From assembly GCA_963716175.1 (NCBI GenBank), contig OY970296.1, forward strand, positions 3,584,001 through 3,648,000: a DNA stretch of 64,000 nt. The letters are read 5' to 3'. Shown piece after piece: positions 40,236-60,814 of the stretch (positions are counted from its first letter, which is position 1; each line of letters starts with the position of its first letter). The position numbers were made by a program, and so were the translations under genes. This DNA is from an uncultured Armatimonadetes bacterium (lineage in GTDB: Bacteria > Armatimonadota > Hebobacteria > Hebobacterales > Hebobacteraceae). The notes beneath the pieces are model-generated. The model did no database searches, was not told the origin of the DNA, and was given only the letters and a program-made list of their open reading frames with translations.

Positions 40236-41573
40236 ATGCTTGCTACGCGTCGAGCCGGGGTCTTGATTCTGCTCAGTGTCCTCTGCTCTCTTGCCACCTC
40301 TGCCTTCTGTGGCCAGCAACCGCCCGCAGGTTCGGCCGTGCCGCCATCAGATGCGGCGGAGGTGCGCCAGCGCGTCGCCGACCAACAAAGAGAGCTGGAT
40401 CGGCTCGCCGGCCGCTTTGAGGGCCTCGAGCAGACGACGAATGCCGCAGCCAAAGCCAGCGAGGCCGCCTGCCAGCACGCTGACTTGGTAATCAAGTCTG
40501 GGGGTGCCCTGGCCGGTATTGTCACCCTTGTGGTTCTCTTGCTCGGGTTCTTTGGGTACCGTCGCGTTCAAGATTTCGCAAGAGGTGAGATTGACAAGGC
40601 ACGACGGCACTTCGATGAACTCATAGCGCAAGTCGAGCAGCACGTGGGGCAGGCGAAGAAGTCCGCAGAGGAGCTAGCGGAAGACGCGAAGCTCGCCAAA
40701 GAGTACATCGCTCGGATTGACGCCTTTCGTCGCCAGGCCGAAGAGCAGGTTCGCGCCCTTGCCACGGTAGACCTGAGCAAGGACATGCCCCCCGAGCTGA
40801 AGCAGTCTCTGGAGGACATCCGCACCAAGCTCGATCTGGTCGAAGCTCTGGGGTTGCCTCTGGACGCGGAGGCCTACCTCGCGCGCGGCAATGCCTACTA
40901 CTCCCGCGGAGACCACCAGCGCTCCCTCCAGTGCTACGACCGGGCCCTCCAGATCAAGCCCGATTATGCCGAGGCGCACTGCAACCGCGGGGTAGCCCTG
41001 GGCAAGCTCCGGCGGCACGACGAGGCCCTCGCCGCCCACGACCGCGCCCTCCAGATCAAGCCCGATTATGCCGAGGCGCATGGCAACCGCGGAGCAGCGC
41101 TCGGCAGGCTCGGCCGCGACGAGGAGGCCCTCGCTGCCTCTGACCGCGCCCTCCAGATCAAGCCCGACCTTGCCGAGGCGCACTGCAACCGCGGGGTAGC
41201 GTTAAGCAAGCTTGGCCGCCACGAGGAGGCCCTCGCTGCCTCTGACCGCGCCCTCCAGATCAAGCCCGACTATGCTAATGCCCATGTGAATCGAGCGGTG
41301 GCGCTCATCAGTATTGGCCGCTACGAGGAGGCCTTCGCCGCGTGCAACCGCGCCCTCCAGATCAAACCGGATGAGGCGGTGGCCTACTTCAACCGCGCCT
41401 GCGCCCATTCGAGGCTCAACCGGAAAGCTGAGGCATTGGCCGATCTCAGAGAGGCCATCCGGCTTGACCCGGAGTGGAAGGAAAAAGCCAAGACCGACCC
41501 GGATTTCGAGGGCCTGCGTGCCGATCCGGAGTTCCGGCGTCTGGTTGGGCTCGATGACGAGCCGTCTGTGTAG
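40236..41573 (+). CDS. signal-peptide/TM, coiled-coil and tetratricopeptide repeat protein
   Basis: 34-aa repeats DRALQIKPDYAEAHCNRG; C-terminal AKTDPDFEGLRADPEF. Confidence 0.88.
   Translation: MLATRRAGVLILLSVLCSLATSAFCGQQPPAGSAVPPSDAAEVRQRVADQQRELDRLAGRFEGLEQTTNAAAKASEAACQHADLVIKSGGALAGIVTLVVLLLGFFGYRRVQDFARGEIDKARRHFDELIAQVEQHVGQAKKSAEELAEDAKLAKEYIARIDAFRRQAEEQVRALATVDLSKDMPPELKQSLEDIRTKLDLVEALGLPLDAEAYLARGNAYYSRGDHQRSLQCYDRALQIKPDYAEAHCNRGVALGKLRRHDEALAAHDRALQIKPDYAEAHGNRGAALGRLGRDEEALAASDRALQIKPDLAEAHCNRGVALSKLGRHEEALAASDRALQIKPDYANAHVNRAVALISIGRYEEAFAACNRALQIKPDEAVAYFNRACAHSRLNRKAEALADLREAIRLDPEWKEKAKTDPDFEGLRADPEFRRLVGLDDEPSV
40938..41372 (+). repeat. 102-bp tandem DNA repeats encoding TPRs
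   Basis: gaccgcgccctccagatcaagcccga (with minor variants) recurs at about 40938, 41040, 41142, 41244, 41346. Confidence 0.9.
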
Positions 41574-41707
41574 GGCGGGCACTCCCGTGCCCGCCTGCTG
41601 TTGCGTGCTGTAACTCCGATTGACCCGGCGGGCATAGGAATGCCCGCCCTACAGAAGGCCCCGGCGGGTATGGTCTTGTCCGCCTCCGGCGGGAATGCCC
41701 GCCCTAC
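41570..41707. repeat. REP cluster downstream of RAYT (41570-41595 +, 41627-41652 -, 41663-41707 - with nested insert)
   Basis: GTAGGGCGGGCA...TGCCCGCC and reverse complements; the first two form an inverted pair (REPIN-like). Confidence 0.88.
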
Positions 41708-41713
41708 ATGAGG

Positions 41714-42190
41714 CTACCACTCCAGGACCTCAATCTCGCCCTGGTACGGCCACTTATCGGCCGAGTCTACCAGTCTCGCCCGCTCTGGGTTGAGGCGGAC
41801 GTAGTCCCACTTTTCCGAGTATGATTCAGACTTCCGGAGAAGGTGGTCGAAGAACTCAAGCTGCCACGCGAATGTGGCGAGACAACTTTGGCGAATCCTC
41901 CGCTGCGCCCATCGTTTCCAACTTCCGATGAAGCGACTCAGCTCGCTCGCCTCGTCGTGTCGGGGTCCTGCAAAGAAGTGCACATGGTCCGGCATCACCA
42001 CATACCGACCCACACACCACTGATGTATGTCACCCGCGGCTTGCCAGGCATCCACCAGGAGCTTAGCTACCGGCTGGTCTGCAAGCACGGGCCTGCGATC
42101 TCGCACGCAGCAAGTGATCAAGTAGACCGGCTGCCGCCCGCGATGTCCATAGATACGGTCGAGTCGTGTGAGGTGCTTGCGTTCAGGCAC
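41714..42190 (-). mobile_element. rayT: REP-associated tyrosine transposase (RAYT/TnpA-REP, Y1 HUH family)
   Basis: YLITCC, YVVMPDHVHF (HUH), WQ..FFDHLLR, YVRLNP..ARLV...WPY; REPs on both sides. Confidence 0.92.
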
Positions 42191-42205
42191 GCGTTTTGAT
42201 CTTTC

Positions 42206-42231
42206 GGCGGGCACGCCAGTGTCCGCCCTAC
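42206..42231 (-). repeat. GTAG-REP upstream of RAYT, overlapping the mutS2 stop
   Basis: ggcgggcac-gcca-gtgtccgccctac. Confidence 0.85.
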
Positions 42232-44687
42232 AGGGGCTCCCCCAGCTCCACAATGGTCACGCCGGAGTCGCCCTGCCCGTGCTCGCCGAGGTGGAACGAC
42301 TTCACCAAAGGATGCTCCTTCAGCCGGGCGTGCACGGCCGCGCGAATGGCGCCGGTGCCCTTGCCGTGCACGATGCGAACGCGGTCGTGGTGGGCGAGGG
42401 CGGCGCGGTCGAGGTAGCGATCCAGCTCGTAGACGGCCGGCTCGGCGCGCAGGCCTCGCAGGTGCAGCTCTGGCGGCACCGGTCCCGGGTCGGCGCGCAG
42501 CTCCGGTGGCGTGCGGGTCACGGTCACCAGGGCCTCTGGCGCGCGCGCCAGATCGGAGACATCCACGGTCACGCGCAGAATGCCCACCTGCACCGCGACC
42601 TGCCCCTGCTCGTCAGGTGGAGACAGCACGCTCCCCCGCTGACCGATGCTCCGCACCGTCACCGCGTCGCCAGGCCTCAGGTCCCCCACCGGCTCCGGTT
42701 CCGGCTCCAGCTCGGCCGGCTTCTCCTCCTCCACCTCGGCAGTGGCCTCGGCCGCCTCCTCCGAGATTCCGGCCAGCTCCTGCCGCGCCACCTGGCTCAC
42801 CTCCGCGGGTTCCGCCACACGGAGGGCGGACGGATGCGGCAGCGCGTAGCGGGCGGCCTGCTCGGCCTCCCAAGCGATCGCCTCCTGGGCCGCCCTCGCC
42901 TCCTGCACGGACTGGCGCAGCAGGTTGAGTAAGTCCTCGGTGCGCTGCTTGGCGCGGGAGACAATGCGGCGGGCCTCGTCCCGCGCCTGGCGCAGAAGGT
43001 CCTTCCGCTCGTTTTTCAGCTCATCGAGCAAGCGCTGATACTCGCCGCGATTGCGCTCCAGGTCCATGCGCGCCTTCGCCGCCTCTCTCCGCTCCTCCGC
43101 GAGATCGCGCTGATCCCGTTCCGCCCGCTGGATCACCTCGTGCAGCGCCACCTGGGCCTCGCCCATGGTCGCCGCGGCCTCGCGCAGCACCGAGGCTGCT
43201 ATCCCCAGCCGGGAGGCGATGGCGAAAGCGTTGCTGCTGCCCGGCAGTCCGATGCGCACCTCGAAGGTTGGCTCCAGGGTCGCGGGGTCGAACTCCACGC
43301 TCGCGTTCTGGACACCGGGCTGAGTGTAGGCGAAGGACTTCAGCTCGCCGTAGTGGGTGGTGGCCATCACTCGCGAGCCTCGCCGCAGCAGCTCCAGGAT
43401 GATCGCCTTCGCCAGCGCCGACCCTTCCGCGGGGTCGGTGCCGGCGCCGATCTCGTCCAGCAGCACCAGGGAGTTGCCGCCGGCCTGATCGAGCACGTTC
43501 ACGATCTGCGTCACGTGGGAGGAGAAAGTGGAGAGGTTCTGCTGAATGCTCTGCTCATCGCCGATGTCGGCGAACACCTGGCTGTAGATCGCGATCCGGC
43601 TGCCAGACGCGGCCGGGATGTGCATCCCCGACTGCGCCATCAGAGTCAGCAACCCCACGGTCTTCAGAGTCACGGTCTTCCCACCGGTGTTGGGGCCGGT
43701 GAGGATGAGGGCGTTGAACTCATCCCCTAGCCGGATATCGATGGGCACCACGTTCCCGGCCAGCAGCGGGTGCCGGGCAGCGACCAGGTCCACCTTGCTC
43801 TGGGTGTTCAGCTCCGGCTCGGTCGCTCCCATCTGTTCCGCCAGGCCGGCGCGGGCGAAGATCAGGTCCAGCGCGGCCAGCGCGCGCATGGAGTCCAGGA
43901 TCTCATCGGCGCGCTCGCCCACCTGGAGGCTGAGCCTGGCGAGGATGCGGCGCACTTCGTGCTCCTCCGCCGCCTTCGCCTCCCGCAGCTCGTTGTTGGG
44001 ATCCACCACCAGGAAGGGCTCCATGAACACCGTGGCGCCGCTGGCCGAAGTGTCGTGCACGATGCCGCGGAACTCGCCCTTGAACTCGCTGCGCACCGGC
44101 ACGCAGTAGCGCCCGTTGCGCACCGTGACGATCGGCTCCTGGATGATGCGGGCATAGCGGGGGGAGTGGATGATCGCCTCCAGGCGCTTCTCCACCACGT
44201 CGTGCAGCCGGCGCAGGCGGGCGCGGATGGTCCTGAGTTGATCGCTGGCGCCGTCCACCACCTCACCGCGGTTATCTATGCTGCCTTCAATCGCCTGCTC
44301 GATCTCCTGGAATACGCCCAGCTCCTTTGCCTTCTCCACCACCAGGGGGGCGTCTACCTCTCCCCGCTGGAGGAAGGCACGCATGCGGCGAGAGGCATAG
44401 AGGGTGTCGGTCACCTCGAGTAAGTCCCGCGCCGCCAACACGCCGCCTCGGGCCGCGTTCAGCACTTGGGCGCGGACATCGTGAACCCCTCCCAGCGGCA
44501 CCCGGCCCGCGGCGGCGCGCAGCGCCCTCGCTTGCGTGGTCTCCGCCACCAGGCGGCGCACCACAGCGGGCTCCATCGCTGGCTCCAGCCGCGCGGCCAG
44601 CTCCTTGCCCAGCGCGCAGGAGGCCTGCTCGCCCAGGCGTTCGCGGATGGCGCCGTATTCCAGTACCCGGAGAGTGCGTGCGTCCAT
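42228..44687 (-). CDS. mutS2: endonuclease MutS2 (Smr domain)
   Basis: TGPNTGGKTV, DIGDEQSIQQNLSTFSSH, DEIGAGTDP, Smr LHLRG...IVHGKGTG. Confidence 0.96.
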   Translation of the reverse strand: MDARTLRVLEYGAIRERLGEQASCALGKELAARLEPAMEPAVVRRLVAETTQARALRAAAGRVPLGGVHDVRAQVLNAARGGVLAARDLLEVTDTLYASRRMRAFLQRGEVDAPLVVEKAKELGVFQEIEQAIEGSIDNRGEVVDGASDQLRTIRARLRRLHDVVEKRLEAIIHSPRYARIIQEPIVTVRNGRYCVPVRSEFKGEFRGIVHDTSASGATVFMEPFLVVDPNNELREAKAAEEHEVRRILARLSLQVGERADEILDSMRALAALDLIFARAGLAEQMGATEPELNTQSKVDLVAARHPLLAGNVVPIDIRLGDEFNALILTGPNTGGKTVTLKTVGLLTLMAQSGMHIPAASGSRIAIYSQVFADIGDEQSIQQNLSTFSSHVTQIVNVLDQAGGNSLVLLDEIGAGTDPAEGSALAKAIILELLRRGSRVMATTHYGELKSFAYTQPGVQNASVEFDPATLEPTFEVRIGLPGSSNAFAIASRLGIAASVLREAAATMGEAQVALHEVIQRAERDQRDLAEERREAAKARMDLERNRGEYQRLLDELKNERKDLLRQARDEARRIVSRAKQRTEDLLNLLRQSVQEARAAQEAIAWEAEQAARYALPHPSALRVAEPAEVSQVARQELAGISEEAAEATAEVEEEKPAELEPEPEPVGDLRPGDAVTVRSIGQRGSVLSPPDEQGQVAVQVGILRVTVDVSDLARAPEALVTVTRTPPELRADPGPVPPELHLRGLRAEPAVYELDRYLDRAALAHHDRVRIVHGKGTGAIRAAVHARLKEHPLVKSFHLGEHGQGDSGVTIVELGEPL

Positions 44688-56214: not shown

Positions 56215-56291
56215 GGCGGGCATGCGGAGATGGCTAGGTTGCCGGAGGCAACCGCCATGGCGGCTCAGGCCTAGCCACATGCCCGCCCTAC
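56215..56291 (-). repeat. GTAG-REP carrying a nested 47-bp cloverleaf element (56231-56277)
   Basis: ggcgggcatgcggaga[tggctagg...cctagcca]catgcccgccctac. Confidence 0.85.
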
Positions 56292-56802: not shown

Positions 56803-58474
56803 TCAGTCCACCAGCATGTCTTCCACTGTGCCGCCGGCTGGCACCATGGGCATTACGTTCTCGTCACGCGCCACCTGGAAATCCACCAGGCAGGGCCGGT
56901 CGCTCACTGCCATCGCCTGCGCGACTACCTGCTCCACTTCCGAGTCCTTGGTCGCCCTCAGGCCGACCGCGCCATAGGCCTCGGCCAGCTTCACGAAGTC
57001 CGGGGAGCCGGTGGCGATGTCGGTGTGCGAGAGGCGCTCCCGGAAGAAGAGCGACTGCCACTGGCGCACCATACCGAGATAGCCGTTGTTCAGCACTGCG
57101 ATCTTCACTGGAATCCGGTTGGTCACCGCGGTCGCCATCTCCTGGATGTTCATCTGAATGCTGCCATCGCCGGCGATGTCCCAGACCACCTGCTCCGGGT
57201 GAGCGATCTGGGCGCCGATGGCCGCGGGCAGGCCGTAGCCCATGGTCCCCAGGCCCCCGGAGCTGATGAACTGCCGCGGCGCGCTTGCAGGGATACCACT
57301 GGGCCGCCCACATCTGGTTCTGGCCCACCTCGGTGACGATGATCGCCTCTCCCTTGGTGGCGCGATAGATCTCCTGGATCACATATTGGGGCTTCAGCCC
57401 ATCGCCCTTCCAGCGCAGGGGATATTGCTGCTTCCACTCCTCGATCTTCGCCCGCCACTCCGGGTGGCGGGCAGGCACCACCTTCTTTAGCAGCGCGTGC
57501 AGCACCAACTTGACGTCGCCCACGATAGGGAGAGCGGGGGCCACGTTCTTGCCGATCTCAGCCGGATCAATGTCCACATGGATGAACTTCGCGGCCCGCG
57601 CGAACATGTCCAGCTTGCCCGTCACCCGGTCGTCGAAGCGAGTCCCAGCCGCCAGGATCACGTCCGCCTCGTGCAGCGCGTAGTTGGCATAGGCGGTGCC
57701 ATGCATCCCAGGCATGCCCAGGGACAGATCATGGTCCTCCGGAAAGCCGCCCTTCCCCATCAGGGTCATGGTCACCGGCATGTCAGCTCGCTCGGCCAGC
57801 TCCACCAGCTCGGCCTGGGCGTCGGCGCTGTTGATCCCGCCCCCGCCGTAGATCAGGGGCCGCTGGGCCCCGTTGATCATCTCCGCCGCTCGCTCGATCA
57901 TCTTCACGTGCCCGCTCCGGGTGGGCCGATAGCCGCGCAGCTCCACCTTCTCCGGGTACTCGAAATCGAGTTCCGCTTGCTGCACATCCCGGGGGAAGTC
58001 CACCAGCACCGGGCCAGGCCGGCCGGTGCGGGCAACGTGAAATGCTTCTTTCAACACCCGCGGCACATCGGCGGCCTTGGTGAGCAGGTAGTTGTGCTTG
58101 GTGATGGGCATGGTGATGCCGGTGATGTCGGCCTCCTGGAAGGCGTCCTTGCCGATGGCGAAGGTTGGCACCTGCCCTGTGATCGCCACGATCGGCACCG
58201 AGTCCATGTACGCGGTGGCGATCCCGGTCACCAGATTCGTGGCGCCGGGGCCAGAGGTGGCCAGGCACACGCCCACCTTGCCACTGGCGCGGGCATAGCC
58301 ATCCGCGGCATGCGCGGCGCCCTGCTCGTGCCGCACCAGGATGTGGCGGATGTCCTTGACGTCGTACAGCACGTCGTAGATCGGCAGCAGGACACCGCCC
58401 GGGTAGCCGAAGATGACCTCGACTCCCTCGCGCCTCAGGCTCTCCATCAATGCTTGCGCGCCGGTCATCCTCAT
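56803..58474 (-). CDS. ilvB: acetolactate synthase large subunit (frameshift near 57280)
   Basis: [31 protein letters not shown]; the next frame has [23 protein letters not shown]. Confidence 0.95.
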
Positions 58475-60246
58475 GCTCTCACCTCTCTGCTCATCTCGCC
58501 ATTCACCATCATCACTGCGCCTCGCGCGGCCGAGGAAACTTGAGCCGCGTAGCGGGCCAGCCAACCGGTAGCAATCTTGGGCGGCAATGGCCTCCAACTA
58601 CGGCGCCGGTCTCTCAGCTCCCCCGCCTTGACCCGCAGCTCGATCTTCCGGCGGTTGATGTCAATCAGGATCTGATCTCCCTCTTGCACCAGGCCGATCG
58701 CGCCGCCAGCGGCGGCCTCTGGCGAGATATGACCCACGGAGAGGCCAATGGTCGCGCCGGAGAAGCGCCCGTCAGTGATCAGAGCAACCGATTCGTTGAG
58801 GCCCGCGGCGTAGATCTGCGAGGTGGGGTAGAGCATCTCCCTCATCCCCGGGCCTCCCCGGGGTCCTTCGTACTGTATTACCACCACGTCGCCCGGCTGT
58901 ATCTTGCCCTCCACGATCGCCTGGGTGGCATCTTCCTCCCGCGTGAAGACCCGCGCCCGGCCCACAAAGCGGCGCATCTTGCGCGCCACCGCCGACTGCT
59001 TCACCACCGCGCCATCGGGCGCCAGATTGCCGGTCAGGATGGCGATCCCGCCCTCCTTGTGGTAGGGCCGATCGAGGGGCCGGATCACCTCGGCATCGAG
59101 CACTCGCGCCACGGCGGCGATCTGCTGGGTAGGCAGGCCGCTCACTGTATTCGCGGCCTCGAGCTGGCCGGCGATCACATGCATCACCGCCGGTACGCCC
59201 CCCGCCCGGTCCAGGTCCTGCATCGCGTGCACCGCGGTGGGGCCGGGCAGGATATCCGTGATGTGGGGAGTGGTCCGCGAGATATCATCAAACCAACCGA
59301 TCGGCAGCTCGATTCCGGCCTCGTATGCGATCGCCGGCAGATGCAGCACCGTATTGCTGGAACCGCCCAGCGCGTTATCCACGCGGATGGCATTACGGAA
59401 GGCGGCTGTGGTGAGAATCGCGCGCGGCCGAACCTCTTCCCGCACCAGCTCCACGATGCGCTCGCCGCTGGCGTAGGCGATGCGCTTCCGCTCGGCCGAC
59501 ACCGCCAGGGCGGTGCCCGAACCGGGCAGAGAAAGGCCCAGCGCCTCCGTGAGGCAGGCCATGGTATTGGCCGTATACAGCCCCTGGCAGGAACCGATCC
59601 CCGGGCAGGCCGCCATCTCCAGCGCGGTGAGCTGCTGGTCGTTGAGGAGCCCAGCCTTGTGCCAGCCGGCCCCGTAATAGCCGTCGCCGTAGACGACATG
59701 GCCTGCGGCCAGGCGCTCGGCCGTTTTCGCGGTTTCGGGCTTACCCGCGGTGCGGAATTGCTCTGCGGCCGCCATCATATCATCGGCAAGGCGCGCGCAC
59801 TCGCCGGCCATCATTGGGCCCCCGGTCACCACAATCGCGGGGATATTGACCCGGACCGCCGCCATCAGCATGCCGGGCGTGATCTTGTCGCAGTTGGTGA
59901 GCAGCACTACGCCGTCAAACTGGTGGGCCTCTAGCATGGATTCCACCGAGTCCGCGATCAGCTCCCGGGATGGGAGGGAATAGTGCATTCCCGCATGCCC
60001 CATGGCGAGGCCATCGCAGATGCCGGGCAGGCCGAAGAAGAAGGCCGTGCCGCCAGCGGCGAAGATACCGCGCTCGATGTGGCGCTCCAGGTCACGCAGA
60101 CCGACATGACCGGGGATGATGTCGTTCCAGCTGGTGGCGACGGCGATGAAAGGCCGGTCAATGGCGCTTCGGCCCAGGCCCGACCCATAGAGCAGAGCGC
60201 GGTGCGGCGCCCGCTCCGGCCCCGTCTTGATCACATCGCTGCGCAT
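58471..60246 (-). CDS. ilvD: dihydroxy-acid dehydratase
   Basis: [60 protein letters not shown]. Confidence 0.97.
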
Positions 60247-60399
60247 AATGTCTCCTCGTCCAACCTGCCTAGAGCGCGTTTCATAACCTACCTGCTGGCT
60301 GGCCGCACCACGCCCTCGCATCAAATGCGCCTGCCAGGGCCTGACGTTGTGCAGTGCTGTCTCATAACCTCCCCTGGGAAGGTTATGAAACAGCTTCTA

Positions 60400-60775
60400 T
60401 GCAAAAACCTCTCGTCCCAGTTTGGGACGAGAGGCGCAGGTCTCTCGCGGTACCACCCAAATTGAACGACGGCCGTCGCCGACGTGATGGCCGCGTCCCA
60501 CTCTCTGCGCGCTAACGGGCGGCTCCCGGCACCGGCCTATGCTACTCTGCGAAGTAGCGAAGTAACATCACTACTTCGCTACGAAGCACGAGCTGGATGC
60601 GTTCGGCCGGGCAGCTCTGGGGCGAGATTCGGTGGCTAAGCCTGCCTCTAGCAGGCCGCCATGGCGGCCCTTTCGGGCCTAGCCACAGGTTCCCGGCGCC
60701 GGCTCCCAGCCCAGACCGGCTCTCTGGAGCCTGAGTCCCTGCCTACTGCTCCCCTTCGTCGCTTTTGCGGACTCG
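60400..60775 (-). promoter_or_regulatory. T-box riboswitch leader of the ilv-leu operon (probable Leu CUC specifier)
   Basis: minus strand: AGTA/GAA loop-E, CAGAGAGCC AG box, GCTGGGAGCC distal loop, GAAT-CTC-G specifier (60624-60626; AUC/Ile reading not excluded), CCGTTA, AATTTGGGTGGTACCGCG T-box. Confidence 0.95.
60403..60434 (-). terminator. T-box intrinsic terminator
   Basis: CCTCTCGTCCCA-AAC-TGGGACGAGAGG-TTTTT. Confidence 0.92.
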
Positions 60776-60784
60776 ACTGGAAGG

Positions 60785-60814
60785 ATTATAGCAGAGGCGG
60801 AAAGGCAGCGTCAA
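60785..60814 (-). promoter_or_regulatory. sigma70 promoter of the T-box/ilv-leu operon
   Basis: minus strand TTGACG-18-TATAAT with TG extension. Confidence 0.85.

Follow-up and report, generated by a model that had tools for sequence, protein, structure and literature searches.

Stem I of T-box riboswitches has been described as a molecular ruler (PMC4919913). A leader whose stem I is split by 53 additional base pairs raises the question of where such an element comes from and what becomes of the riboswitch that holds it. Such a leader lies in the window analysed here, the whole stretch of 64,000 nucleotides at positions 3,584,001 to 3,648,000 (forward strand) of contig OY970296.1, from an uncultured Armatimonadetes bacterium (assembly GCA_963716175.1). 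The genome containing the window, called G000 below (related genomes are G005 and so on), measures 4.56 Mb with 66% G+C. The leader occupies 60420..60768 on the minus strand, is a T-box of the transcription attenuation type with a Leu specifier (RF00230, 49.8 bits, E 1.3e-9) and regulates ilvD, which encodes dihydroxy-acid dehydratase (58471..60324, minus strand; Pfam ILVD_EDD_N 1.2e-115 and ILV_EDD_C 8e-78). The inserted element lies at 60633..60685, also on the minus strand. Taken as a whole our results make it likely that this element is a solo copy of a repeat resembling repetitive extragenic palindromes (REPs) and bacterial interspersed mosaic elements (BIMEs), that it was inserted once, and that it is a tolerated passenger in a T-box that still works.

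The 53-nt string matches the window a single time, at 60633-60685 and with 0 mismatches, as the initial annotation had described, and 0 of 100 shuffled sequences matched it. It interrupts the 3' strand of stem I between CCUG and CC, with two base pairs separating it from the specifier loop below. In the RNA, CCUG (60686..60689, minus strand) lies directly 5' of the insert and forms the top of the helix's 3' strand, and CC (60631..60632, minus strand), which supplies the lower two nucleotides of that strand, lies directly 3' of it. The 5' strand of the same helix is GGCAGG (60738..60743, minus strand), with AGUA at 60744-60747, and the 3' side of the specifier loop (60623..60630, minus strand) consists of GAA (60630-60628), U, the CUC specifier (60626-60624) and a purine, G (60623). 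When the 53 nt are deleted in silico, CCUG and CC join to give CCUGCC, which pairs with GGCAGG at 6/6 positions next to AGUA, in G000 and G005 alike; the proposal that removal of the element restores the helix was thus confirmed. The element itself is a head-to-head pair of TA-bulged hairpin units, a homodimer of the 'AA' form, and its conserved parts are identical when read on either strand. Unit 1 (60662..60685, minus strand; G000 3644662-3644685) reads UGGC-UA-GG-CCC GAAA GGG-CC-GCCA in the RNA sense and unit 2 (60633..60661, minus strand; G000 3644633-3644661) reads UGGC-GG-CCUGC UAGAG GCAGG-CU-UA-GCCA, both being matches to the pattern that we call unit A.

Is this arm an insertion or a native part of the T-box? 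We searched for the leader in 40 related genomes and aligned 14 orthologous ilvD leaders. The insert is present in only two of these, those of G000 and G005, which share both its orientation and its exact insertion point; the remaining 12 have an empty site there. Filled and empty sites differ by exactly the 53 bp, and a target-site duplication sought at the T-box site was not found; the BLAST match to G003 breaks into pieces that meet exactly at query positions 115 and 169, on either side of the insert (116-168). The comparison of these leaders shows that the 53 bp are an insertion. The presence of the arm in two genera could be taken to mean that it is an ancient native part which most relatives have lost. 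This reading is hardly credible and is contradicted by the data, because it needs many independent and precise losses among empty leaders that span at least 8 genera, because the arm belongs to a dispersed family of about 118 units in the genome (see below), and because the interrupted helix is continuous in the other orthologous leaders, where it covaries (A-U in some, G-C in others). The initial annotation had suggested a search for empty alleles in related genomes and had seen in the arm a mobile element; both the 12 empty leaders and the dispersed repeat bear this out.

The metagenome data, which are assembled contigs from four runs of other studies and come without starts, strand or expression level, also contain filled and shorter forms. 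One contig covers 60366-60726 with this insert as well as a second one in the same leader (described below), while in others 60632 is followed by 9 other letters and then by 60695, or by 29 and then by 60715, both forms being a net 53 bp shorter. The contigs that skip the insert were matched at 85% likeness and probably come from related organisms. The leaders of G008 (L027) and G012 (L030) have extra pieces of their own, namely a small hairpin, GGTCCC...GGGACC, placed in stem I between its AG bulge and its distal loop, and about 45 extra nt following stem I.

Pattern searches over the whole genome show that the insert belongs to a modular, REP-like repeat family. Its unit has the form N4-TA-RG-(variable stem-loop)-CC-N4', in which N4' is complementary to N4 and the TA is bulged. 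G000 holds 115 strict units compared with 2 in a reversed-genome control (N4 being TGGC in 66, CCCC in 23, TCCC in 16 and CGGC in 6), and the unit-A pattern gives 118 matches compared with 6 in the control. The family is modular in that units join head to head with 0-2 nt between them (46 strict doublets), and what the initial annotation called a cloverleaf is the homodimer of TGGC with TGGC. The pattern of this homodimer, TGGCTARG-(hairpin)-CCGCCATGGCGG-(hairpin)-CYTAGCCA, has 20 strict copies in G000 and, with one mismatch allowed per block, 33 copies of which 30 are distinct; its 12-nt central palindrome occurs 34 times where 2.0 occurrences are expected. Among 66 stem-loops 55 are distinct, yet 38 of these 55 have at least 3 closing pairs (shuffle mean 2.9), so that the scaffold is conserved while the stems vary freely but are paired. 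The CA that the initial annotation reported directly after the element is indeed present at both copies in the window, but only 8 of the 33 homodimer copies in the genome are followed by it. CA is hence not a feature of the family, and was ruled out as a target signature.

The strict doublet pattern was found in 8 of 61 related genomes, namely G000 itself, 6 of 14 genomes of the taxonomic family (our family sample comprised 15 genomes) and 1 of 2 genomes from a second family in the class. The controls gave 0, and the other members of the phylum among these 61 yielded no match. A species collection yielded 35 stretches with the strict pattern, 32 of them labelled Armatimonadota, Armatimonadetes or Candidatus Hebobacteria, the last of which we take to be a lineage of Armatimonadota. 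The remaining records are one labelled Bacillota and one uncultured bacterium that holds two places.

The initial annotation proposed that the element folds on itself as a cloverleaf. Of this proposal the self-folding stands and the cloverleaf does not, since both the minimum-energy RNA fold and the minimum-energy DNA fold consist of two adjacent bulged hairpins. As RNA, the tandem-hairpin fold has a predicted energy of -34.0 kcal/mol in G000 and -28.9 kcal/mol in G005, whereas enforcing the outer stem of the cloverleaf gives -30.9 and -21.3 kcal/mol (3.1 and 7.6 less stable, respectively); the DNA fold of the G000 insert has -16.6 kcal/mol, and the stem pair probabilities of unit 1 are 0.62-0.87. 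The 46 strict doublets comprise 13 canonical homodimers and 33 that are informative for the fold. In the latter the N4 pairs within units are complete in 25 of 33 cases, and the outer stem of a cloverleaf in 0 of 33. Covariation across the family shows support for the hairpin fold, and together with the energies it indicates that the element probably forms two adjacent bulged hairpins, a cloverleaf being improbable.

Other copies in G000 and its relatives point to a mobile element. G008 (19 strict copies) and G012 (12 strict copies) contain near-identical copies, a sign of recent bursts, and nested insertions are found in which heterodimers sit in the centre of homodimers. In the gene for prolyl-tRNA synthetase (ProRS; L085, G000:C1:3386552-3388339) the part for the editing domain contains an in-frame 48-bp doublet, at G000 3387426-3387473, which adds 16 residues (exactly 16 codons); it is absent in 12 of 12 relatives, G005 included, and a target-site duplication sought at this site was not found either. 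Another 48-bp doublet, at G000 644373-644420, falls within the PFL-like domain of an open reading frame (ORF) of 795 aa for a PFL-like glycyl-radical enzyme (L084, G000:C1:643723-646107) and leaves the frame open. A gene for tRNA-His(GTG) is followed by five tandem 162-bp repeats (L086, G000:C1:1774400-1775700), each a tRNA-His 3' fragment whose T-stem GGGGG and T-loop TTCAAAT are separated by a 54-bp doublet. An outer stem of at least 6 bp encloses 19 of the 46 strict doublets, which typically occupy the loop of a GTAGGGCGGGC-type REP, whereas the T-box copy is solo. The second copy in the window, detected with a looser end pattern for which 0.01 matches are expected by chance, is an AA doublet of 47 bp at 56231..56277 and sits in the loop of a GTAG-type REP hairpin formed by GGCGGGCATG at 56215-56224 and CATGCCCGCC at 56278-56287, with CTAC at 56288-56291. 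Composite REPs like that at 56215-56291 constitute a subfamily with shared flanks at several sites of the genome.

Has the riboswitch been maintained with the insert in it? Between G000 and G005 the four-fold degenerate sites of ilvD are identical at 121 of 237 positions (51%), the T-box outside the insert at 209 of 259 (81%) and the insert at 41 of 50 (82%), with 9 aligned differences and 4 gap columns. Since the T-box and the insert are both far more alike than the four-fold sites, this comparison shows that both have been under purifying selection since the insertion. Two of the changes in the longer hairpin (unit 2) are compensatory, one pair going from C-G to U-A and another from U-A to C-G. 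In the G005 insert both TA bulges are GA and the first N4 is UGGU, which pairs with GCCA in the RNA sense through a G-U wobble. Strain variants at 60646, 60648 and 60650, seen in metagenome contigs, all fall in the loop of unit 2. Copy conversion from other units is unlikely in G005, because the family is almost gone there (1 unit-A match, compared with 11 in the control).

The same evidence could mean that the hairpin pair has been exapted as a working part of the riboswitch that retunes the leucine response. It might do so through contact with the class II tRNA-Leu (by its long variable arm or another surface), by slowing or guiding co-transcriptional folding, or as a site for a double-strand RNase that sets the stability of leader and mRNA. 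An insert as conserved as the T-box around it, with two compensatory changes, and its persistence in G005 although the family has nearly vanished there, would fit such a role. So would what is known from elsewhere: T-boxes carry lineage-specific insertions in every domain, which may contact the tRNA (PMC7583486), stem Sa of staphylococcal glyS is a functional insertion (PMC9177973), and cleavage of a T-box leader by RNase III has been recorded (PMC7913692). A constraint on self-pairing is, however, equally expected for a passenger that must not misfold, and 12 of the 14 orthologous leaders do without the insert. The occurrence of the same type of element in such unrelated places as ProRS, tRNA fragments and REP loops moreover speaks for opportunistic insertion. 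We consider exaptation unlikely and favour a tolerated passenger, in which selection would keep the self-pairing.

The remaining parts of the leader are those expected of a T-box. In the RF00230 alignment the K-turn, the AGUA/GAA specifier loop, the AGAGA bulge, CGUUA and the T-box sequence are all aligned with high posterior probability, and the motifs of stem I (K-turn, specifier loop with codon and purine, AG bulge and distal loop) are conserved in the 14 leaders. The specifier, GAA-U-CUC-G, corresponds to Leu, CTC is found in 13 of the 14 orthologous leaders, and a gene for tRNA-Leu(GAG) is present in G000. The T-box sequence in the leader is AAUUUGGGUGGUACCGCG, and the covariance model aligned AAUUUGGGUGGUACCGCGAGAG (in T-boxes UGGU pairs with the NCCA end of tRNA). 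The antiterminator is likewise aligned and would compete with an intrinsic terminator at 60435..60407, the terminator of the expression platform (60407..60435, minus strand), which has a 13-pair stem and a T run. A sigma-70-type promoter lies at 60785..60814 (minus strand) with TTGACG, an 18-nt spacer and TG-TATAAT; it agrees at 11 of 12 positions, where shuffles average 0.0, and TATAAT is kept in the alignment of ortholog leaders. The regulated ilvD gene is intact, and is followed by an acetolactate-synthase-like ORF for a thiamine pyrophosphate (TPP) enzyme (56864-58597). The statement of the initial annotation that the other T-box motifs are intact therefore holds, for the promoter and the terminator as well, and the conservation of these parts suggests that the riboswitch still functions with the insert. 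The expectation of the initial annotation that the riboswitch is functional or retuned is one for which the evidence is sequence constraint. In the ilvD leader of a more distant relative, G020 (L036), the specifier position reads GTC (Val) instead of CTC.

A sequence of events can be proposed that would leave such a riboswitch intact. A copy of a non-coding REP/BIME-like repeat would have entered the DNA for the 3' strand of the stem I helix, without target duplication and in a single insertion, most likely in the common ancestor of G000 and G005. During transcription the distal part of stem I would form first and CCUG would close on it; the two units would then fold locally, fast and very stably as hairpins, and the helix would be completed by CC immediately before the specifier loop's GAA-U-CUC-G side emerges. 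Because the units fold locally and very stably, the interrupted helix could close around the insert. The insert would project from the helix as a junction, a geometry in which the distance from the specifier to the platform need not lengthen and the motifs that contact the tRNA would be kept. Binding of uncharged tRNA-Leu(GAG) would then stabilise the antiterminator and lead to read-through into ilvD, the insert being carried along as a tolerated passenger.

Several observations weigh against this account, and they concern the structure of the leader, the history of the insertion and the enzyme behind it. As to structure, the interrupted helix reaches ensemble pair probabilities of no more than 0.49-0.58. 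When stem I is folded whole, insert included, the minimum-energy structure is not that of a canonical T-box; because this calculation does not model the K-turn and S-turn motifs, we count that structure neither for nor against the account. The arm of unit 2, CCUGC/GCAGG, has the same sequence as the interrupted helix and so is a potential competitor for pairing. A junction 2 base pairs from the specifier could, in addition, clash with the tRNA. The leader's score of 49.8 bits is below the Rfam gathering score of 93, which explains why a default Rfam scan of the window is empty (at gathering thresholds no family was reached in the whole 64 kb). An RNA library contains a 245-nt contig that covers 60497-60739 with both inserts; this contig may derive from DNA and carries no strand information, and so gives a weak hint of leader transcription.

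The low score appears to result from the insertions. Eight insert-free leaders score 92.1-129.6 bits, the leaders of G005, G008 and G012 score 74.5, 70.6 and 76.7, and that of G000 is the lowest; in its RF00230 alignment three stretches exceed the length that the model expects, with 71 nt instead of 17 in distal stem I, 63 instead of 9 following stem I, and 25 instead of 9 in the third. In an E-value-threshold Rfam scan around the element no credible family besides the T-box was found, and a known ribozyme or sRNA family is unsupported. The second insertion of the G000 leader, also of 53 bp, lies in the stem II loop region (60540..60592, minus strand). Its sequence is unrelated to that of the element at 60633-60685, and its family is another REP-like one, of the form CTCGTGCTTCGTAGCGAAG-loop-CTTCGCTACTTCGCAGAGTAGCA with two GTAG motifs, which occurs in at least 15 further places in G000. 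It is absent from all 13 other orthologous leaders, and some metagenome contigs skip it.

Two insertions in one leader, the lowest covariance-model score among the orthologs and a helix predicted to be about half populated might indicate that tRNA sensing has been broken, so that the leader is now a constitutive terminator or read-through element and ilvD is controlled otherwise. A dead leader should have decayed, which the high identity between G000 and G005 outside the insert, set against that of the four-fold sites, argues against; the specifier, the T-box sequence, the terminator and the promoter are intact, as is ilvD. Inactivation is accordingly very improbable in our view, well below the reading of a tolerated passenger.

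With respect to history, G000 and G005 form a pair with 98/97 support in a nucleotide tree of ilvD, and G011, whose site is empty, branches outside it. The genome taxonomy groups G005 and G011 in one genus, and the single origin of the insert rests on one gene tree. Given this grouping, an independent insertion in G000 and G005 at the same site, or a precise excision in G011, has to be considered. Site preference of the element could make a double gain easier, as homodimer copies are flanked by a purine at -1 in 32 of 33 cases and by a pyrimidine at +1 in 33 of 33 (the copies are not mutually independent), and as copies recur at the borders of hairpin stems and loops (REP loops, the T-arm of the tRNA, doublet centres). 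The short hairpin that both copies have in common (GCCC GAAA/GAAGA GGGC) is of the commonest hairpin type in the family and for that reason no proof of orthology. Besides the tree, the same orientation and the same breakpoint in both copies argue for one event, as does the near lack of other units in G005 that could have served as donors, and the differences and gaps between the two copies fit an old shared ancestry. We regard two insertions, or an insertion and a loss, as quite unlikely. In the single-contig assembly of G011 (L022, G011:C1:1201835-1204963) ilvD matches in several shifted pieces; these fit frameshift errors in the assembly, which has a completeness of 65%, and limit its use for trees.

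What could have mobilised the units? The window contains a gene for a REP-associated tyrosine transposase (RAYT) at 41714..42253 on the minus strand (NF047646 at 92 bits, cut-off 80; PDB 4ER8 TnpA-REP at 1e-6), and three simple GTAGGGCGGGC-type REP hairpins lie just downstream of it, at about 41570-41710, with a motif that occurs 172 times in the genome. G000 has five Y1 genes that match Pfam Y1_Tnp, and six genes that match NCBIfam NF047646 above the cut-off. GTAGGGC or GCCCTAC is found within 900 bp of 4 of the 5 Y1 genes. The search for TGGCTAGG, CCTAGCCA or the core within 1.5 kb of the Y1 genes gave 0 of 5, and RAYT homologs occur in 21 of the 23 genomes searched without relation to their doublet counts. 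Neither neighbourhood nor phyletic pattern links these units to RAYT. A hairpin-recognising, single-strand mechanism of the Y1 type would fit the lack of target duplication and the preference for hairpin borders, and a Y1/RAYT-type single-strand mechanism is our leading guess only.

The locus provides a documented origin for one otherwise unexplained T-box insertion: a dispersed palindromic repeat in the arm that measures the tRNA, with empty alleles in relatives, which a sister lineage (G005) has retained through deep divergence with compensatory changes. It may serve as a natural experiment on how much stem I tolerates beside the specifier, and on whether an insert that folds autonomously leaves the ruler intact, and it would be a natural example of extra riboswitch domains arising from mobile DNA. 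For the study of mobile DNA it offers a modular family of bulged hairpins in a little-studied phylum, whose copies are found in a riboswitch, within tRNA fragments and as an in-frame part of ProRS. If exaptation were true, altered binding of tRNA-Leu, altered folding kinetics or altered decay of the leader would be expected. One may speculate further that the pair now serves the Leu T-box as an exapted additional domain, with purifying selection acting on its fold, and that REP-like mobile palindromes are a general source of riboswitch-domain insertions and of peptide inserts in enzymes, for example in ProRS, which we think rather unlikely as a whole. Among the papers listed in a literature search that most subscription journals lay outside, we found no report of a REP, REPIN or MITE (miniature inverted-repeat transposable element) inside a riboswitch helix, or of REPs in Armatimonadota, though one may exist.

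Among known repeats the closest are REPs, BIMEs and REPINs. REPs have been described as inverted dimers with 1-2 bp spacing, as heterodimers, inside palindromes and inside ORFs including tRNA synthetase genes (PMC3733652). The family in G000 likewise consists of short, GC-rich, imperfectly palindromic hairpin units in high copy number (the 115 strict units and 2 control matches given above), with inverted dimers 0-2 bp apart and heterodimers of different stems, with copies inside ORFs including a tRNA synthetase gene and with copies nested in other palindromes, as PMC3733652 describes for REPs. G000 also has RAYT genes and classical GTAGGGCGGGC REPs, and many of the doublets lie in the loops of these REPs. 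The units differ from REPs in having CTAG with a bulged TA between paired segments instead of an unpaired terminal GTAG/CGTC tag, the GTAG tag of this genome belonging to the separate GTAGGGCGGGC REP family, and in that the scaffold (N4, TA, RG/CC) is conserved while nearly all stem-loops are distinct (55 of 66). They differ from a REPtron in that no RAYT gene is flanked by them (0 of 5). MITEs are also small and non-autonomous, and presence/absence polymorphism as in MITEs is seen here. Terminal inverted repeats, TGGCTAGG / CCTAGCCA, exist in the homodimer form only and are absent in the 33 other doublets, and unlike for MITEs there is no target-site duplication at the T-box or ProRS sites and no parent insertion sequence (IS) was found. 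The Rickettsia palindromic elements and intragenic REPs are tolerated in frame in essential genes (PMC3733652), as is the 16-aa insert in ProRS; they belong to another sequence family and another phylum and affect proteins, whereas the element studied here lies in a regulatory RNA.

From the side of the riboswitch, lineage-specific T-box insertions are known in every domain, their origin and function being unknown (PMC7583486). Stem Sa (PMC9177973) is, like the present insert, an extra helical domain on a canonical T-box that is kept in a lineage. It is located in the antiterminator, whereas the insert described here lies in stem I beside the specifier loop. Here the origin is moreover visible, as a copy of a dispersed repeat with empty orthologs, whereas the words 'mobile' and 'transpos' do not occur in PMC9177973. 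A second precedent comes from the pneumococcal trp leader, which has a BOX element between its two T-boxes and seems to have retained regulation (PMC3049150). There too a small structured repeat is co-transcribed in a leader under T-box control; the BOX element has a complete T-box on either side, whereas our repeat splits a helix within stem I, the part that binds the tRNA. REP-like repeats and lineage-specific T-box insertions are both of an already known kind, and the case described here joins the two.

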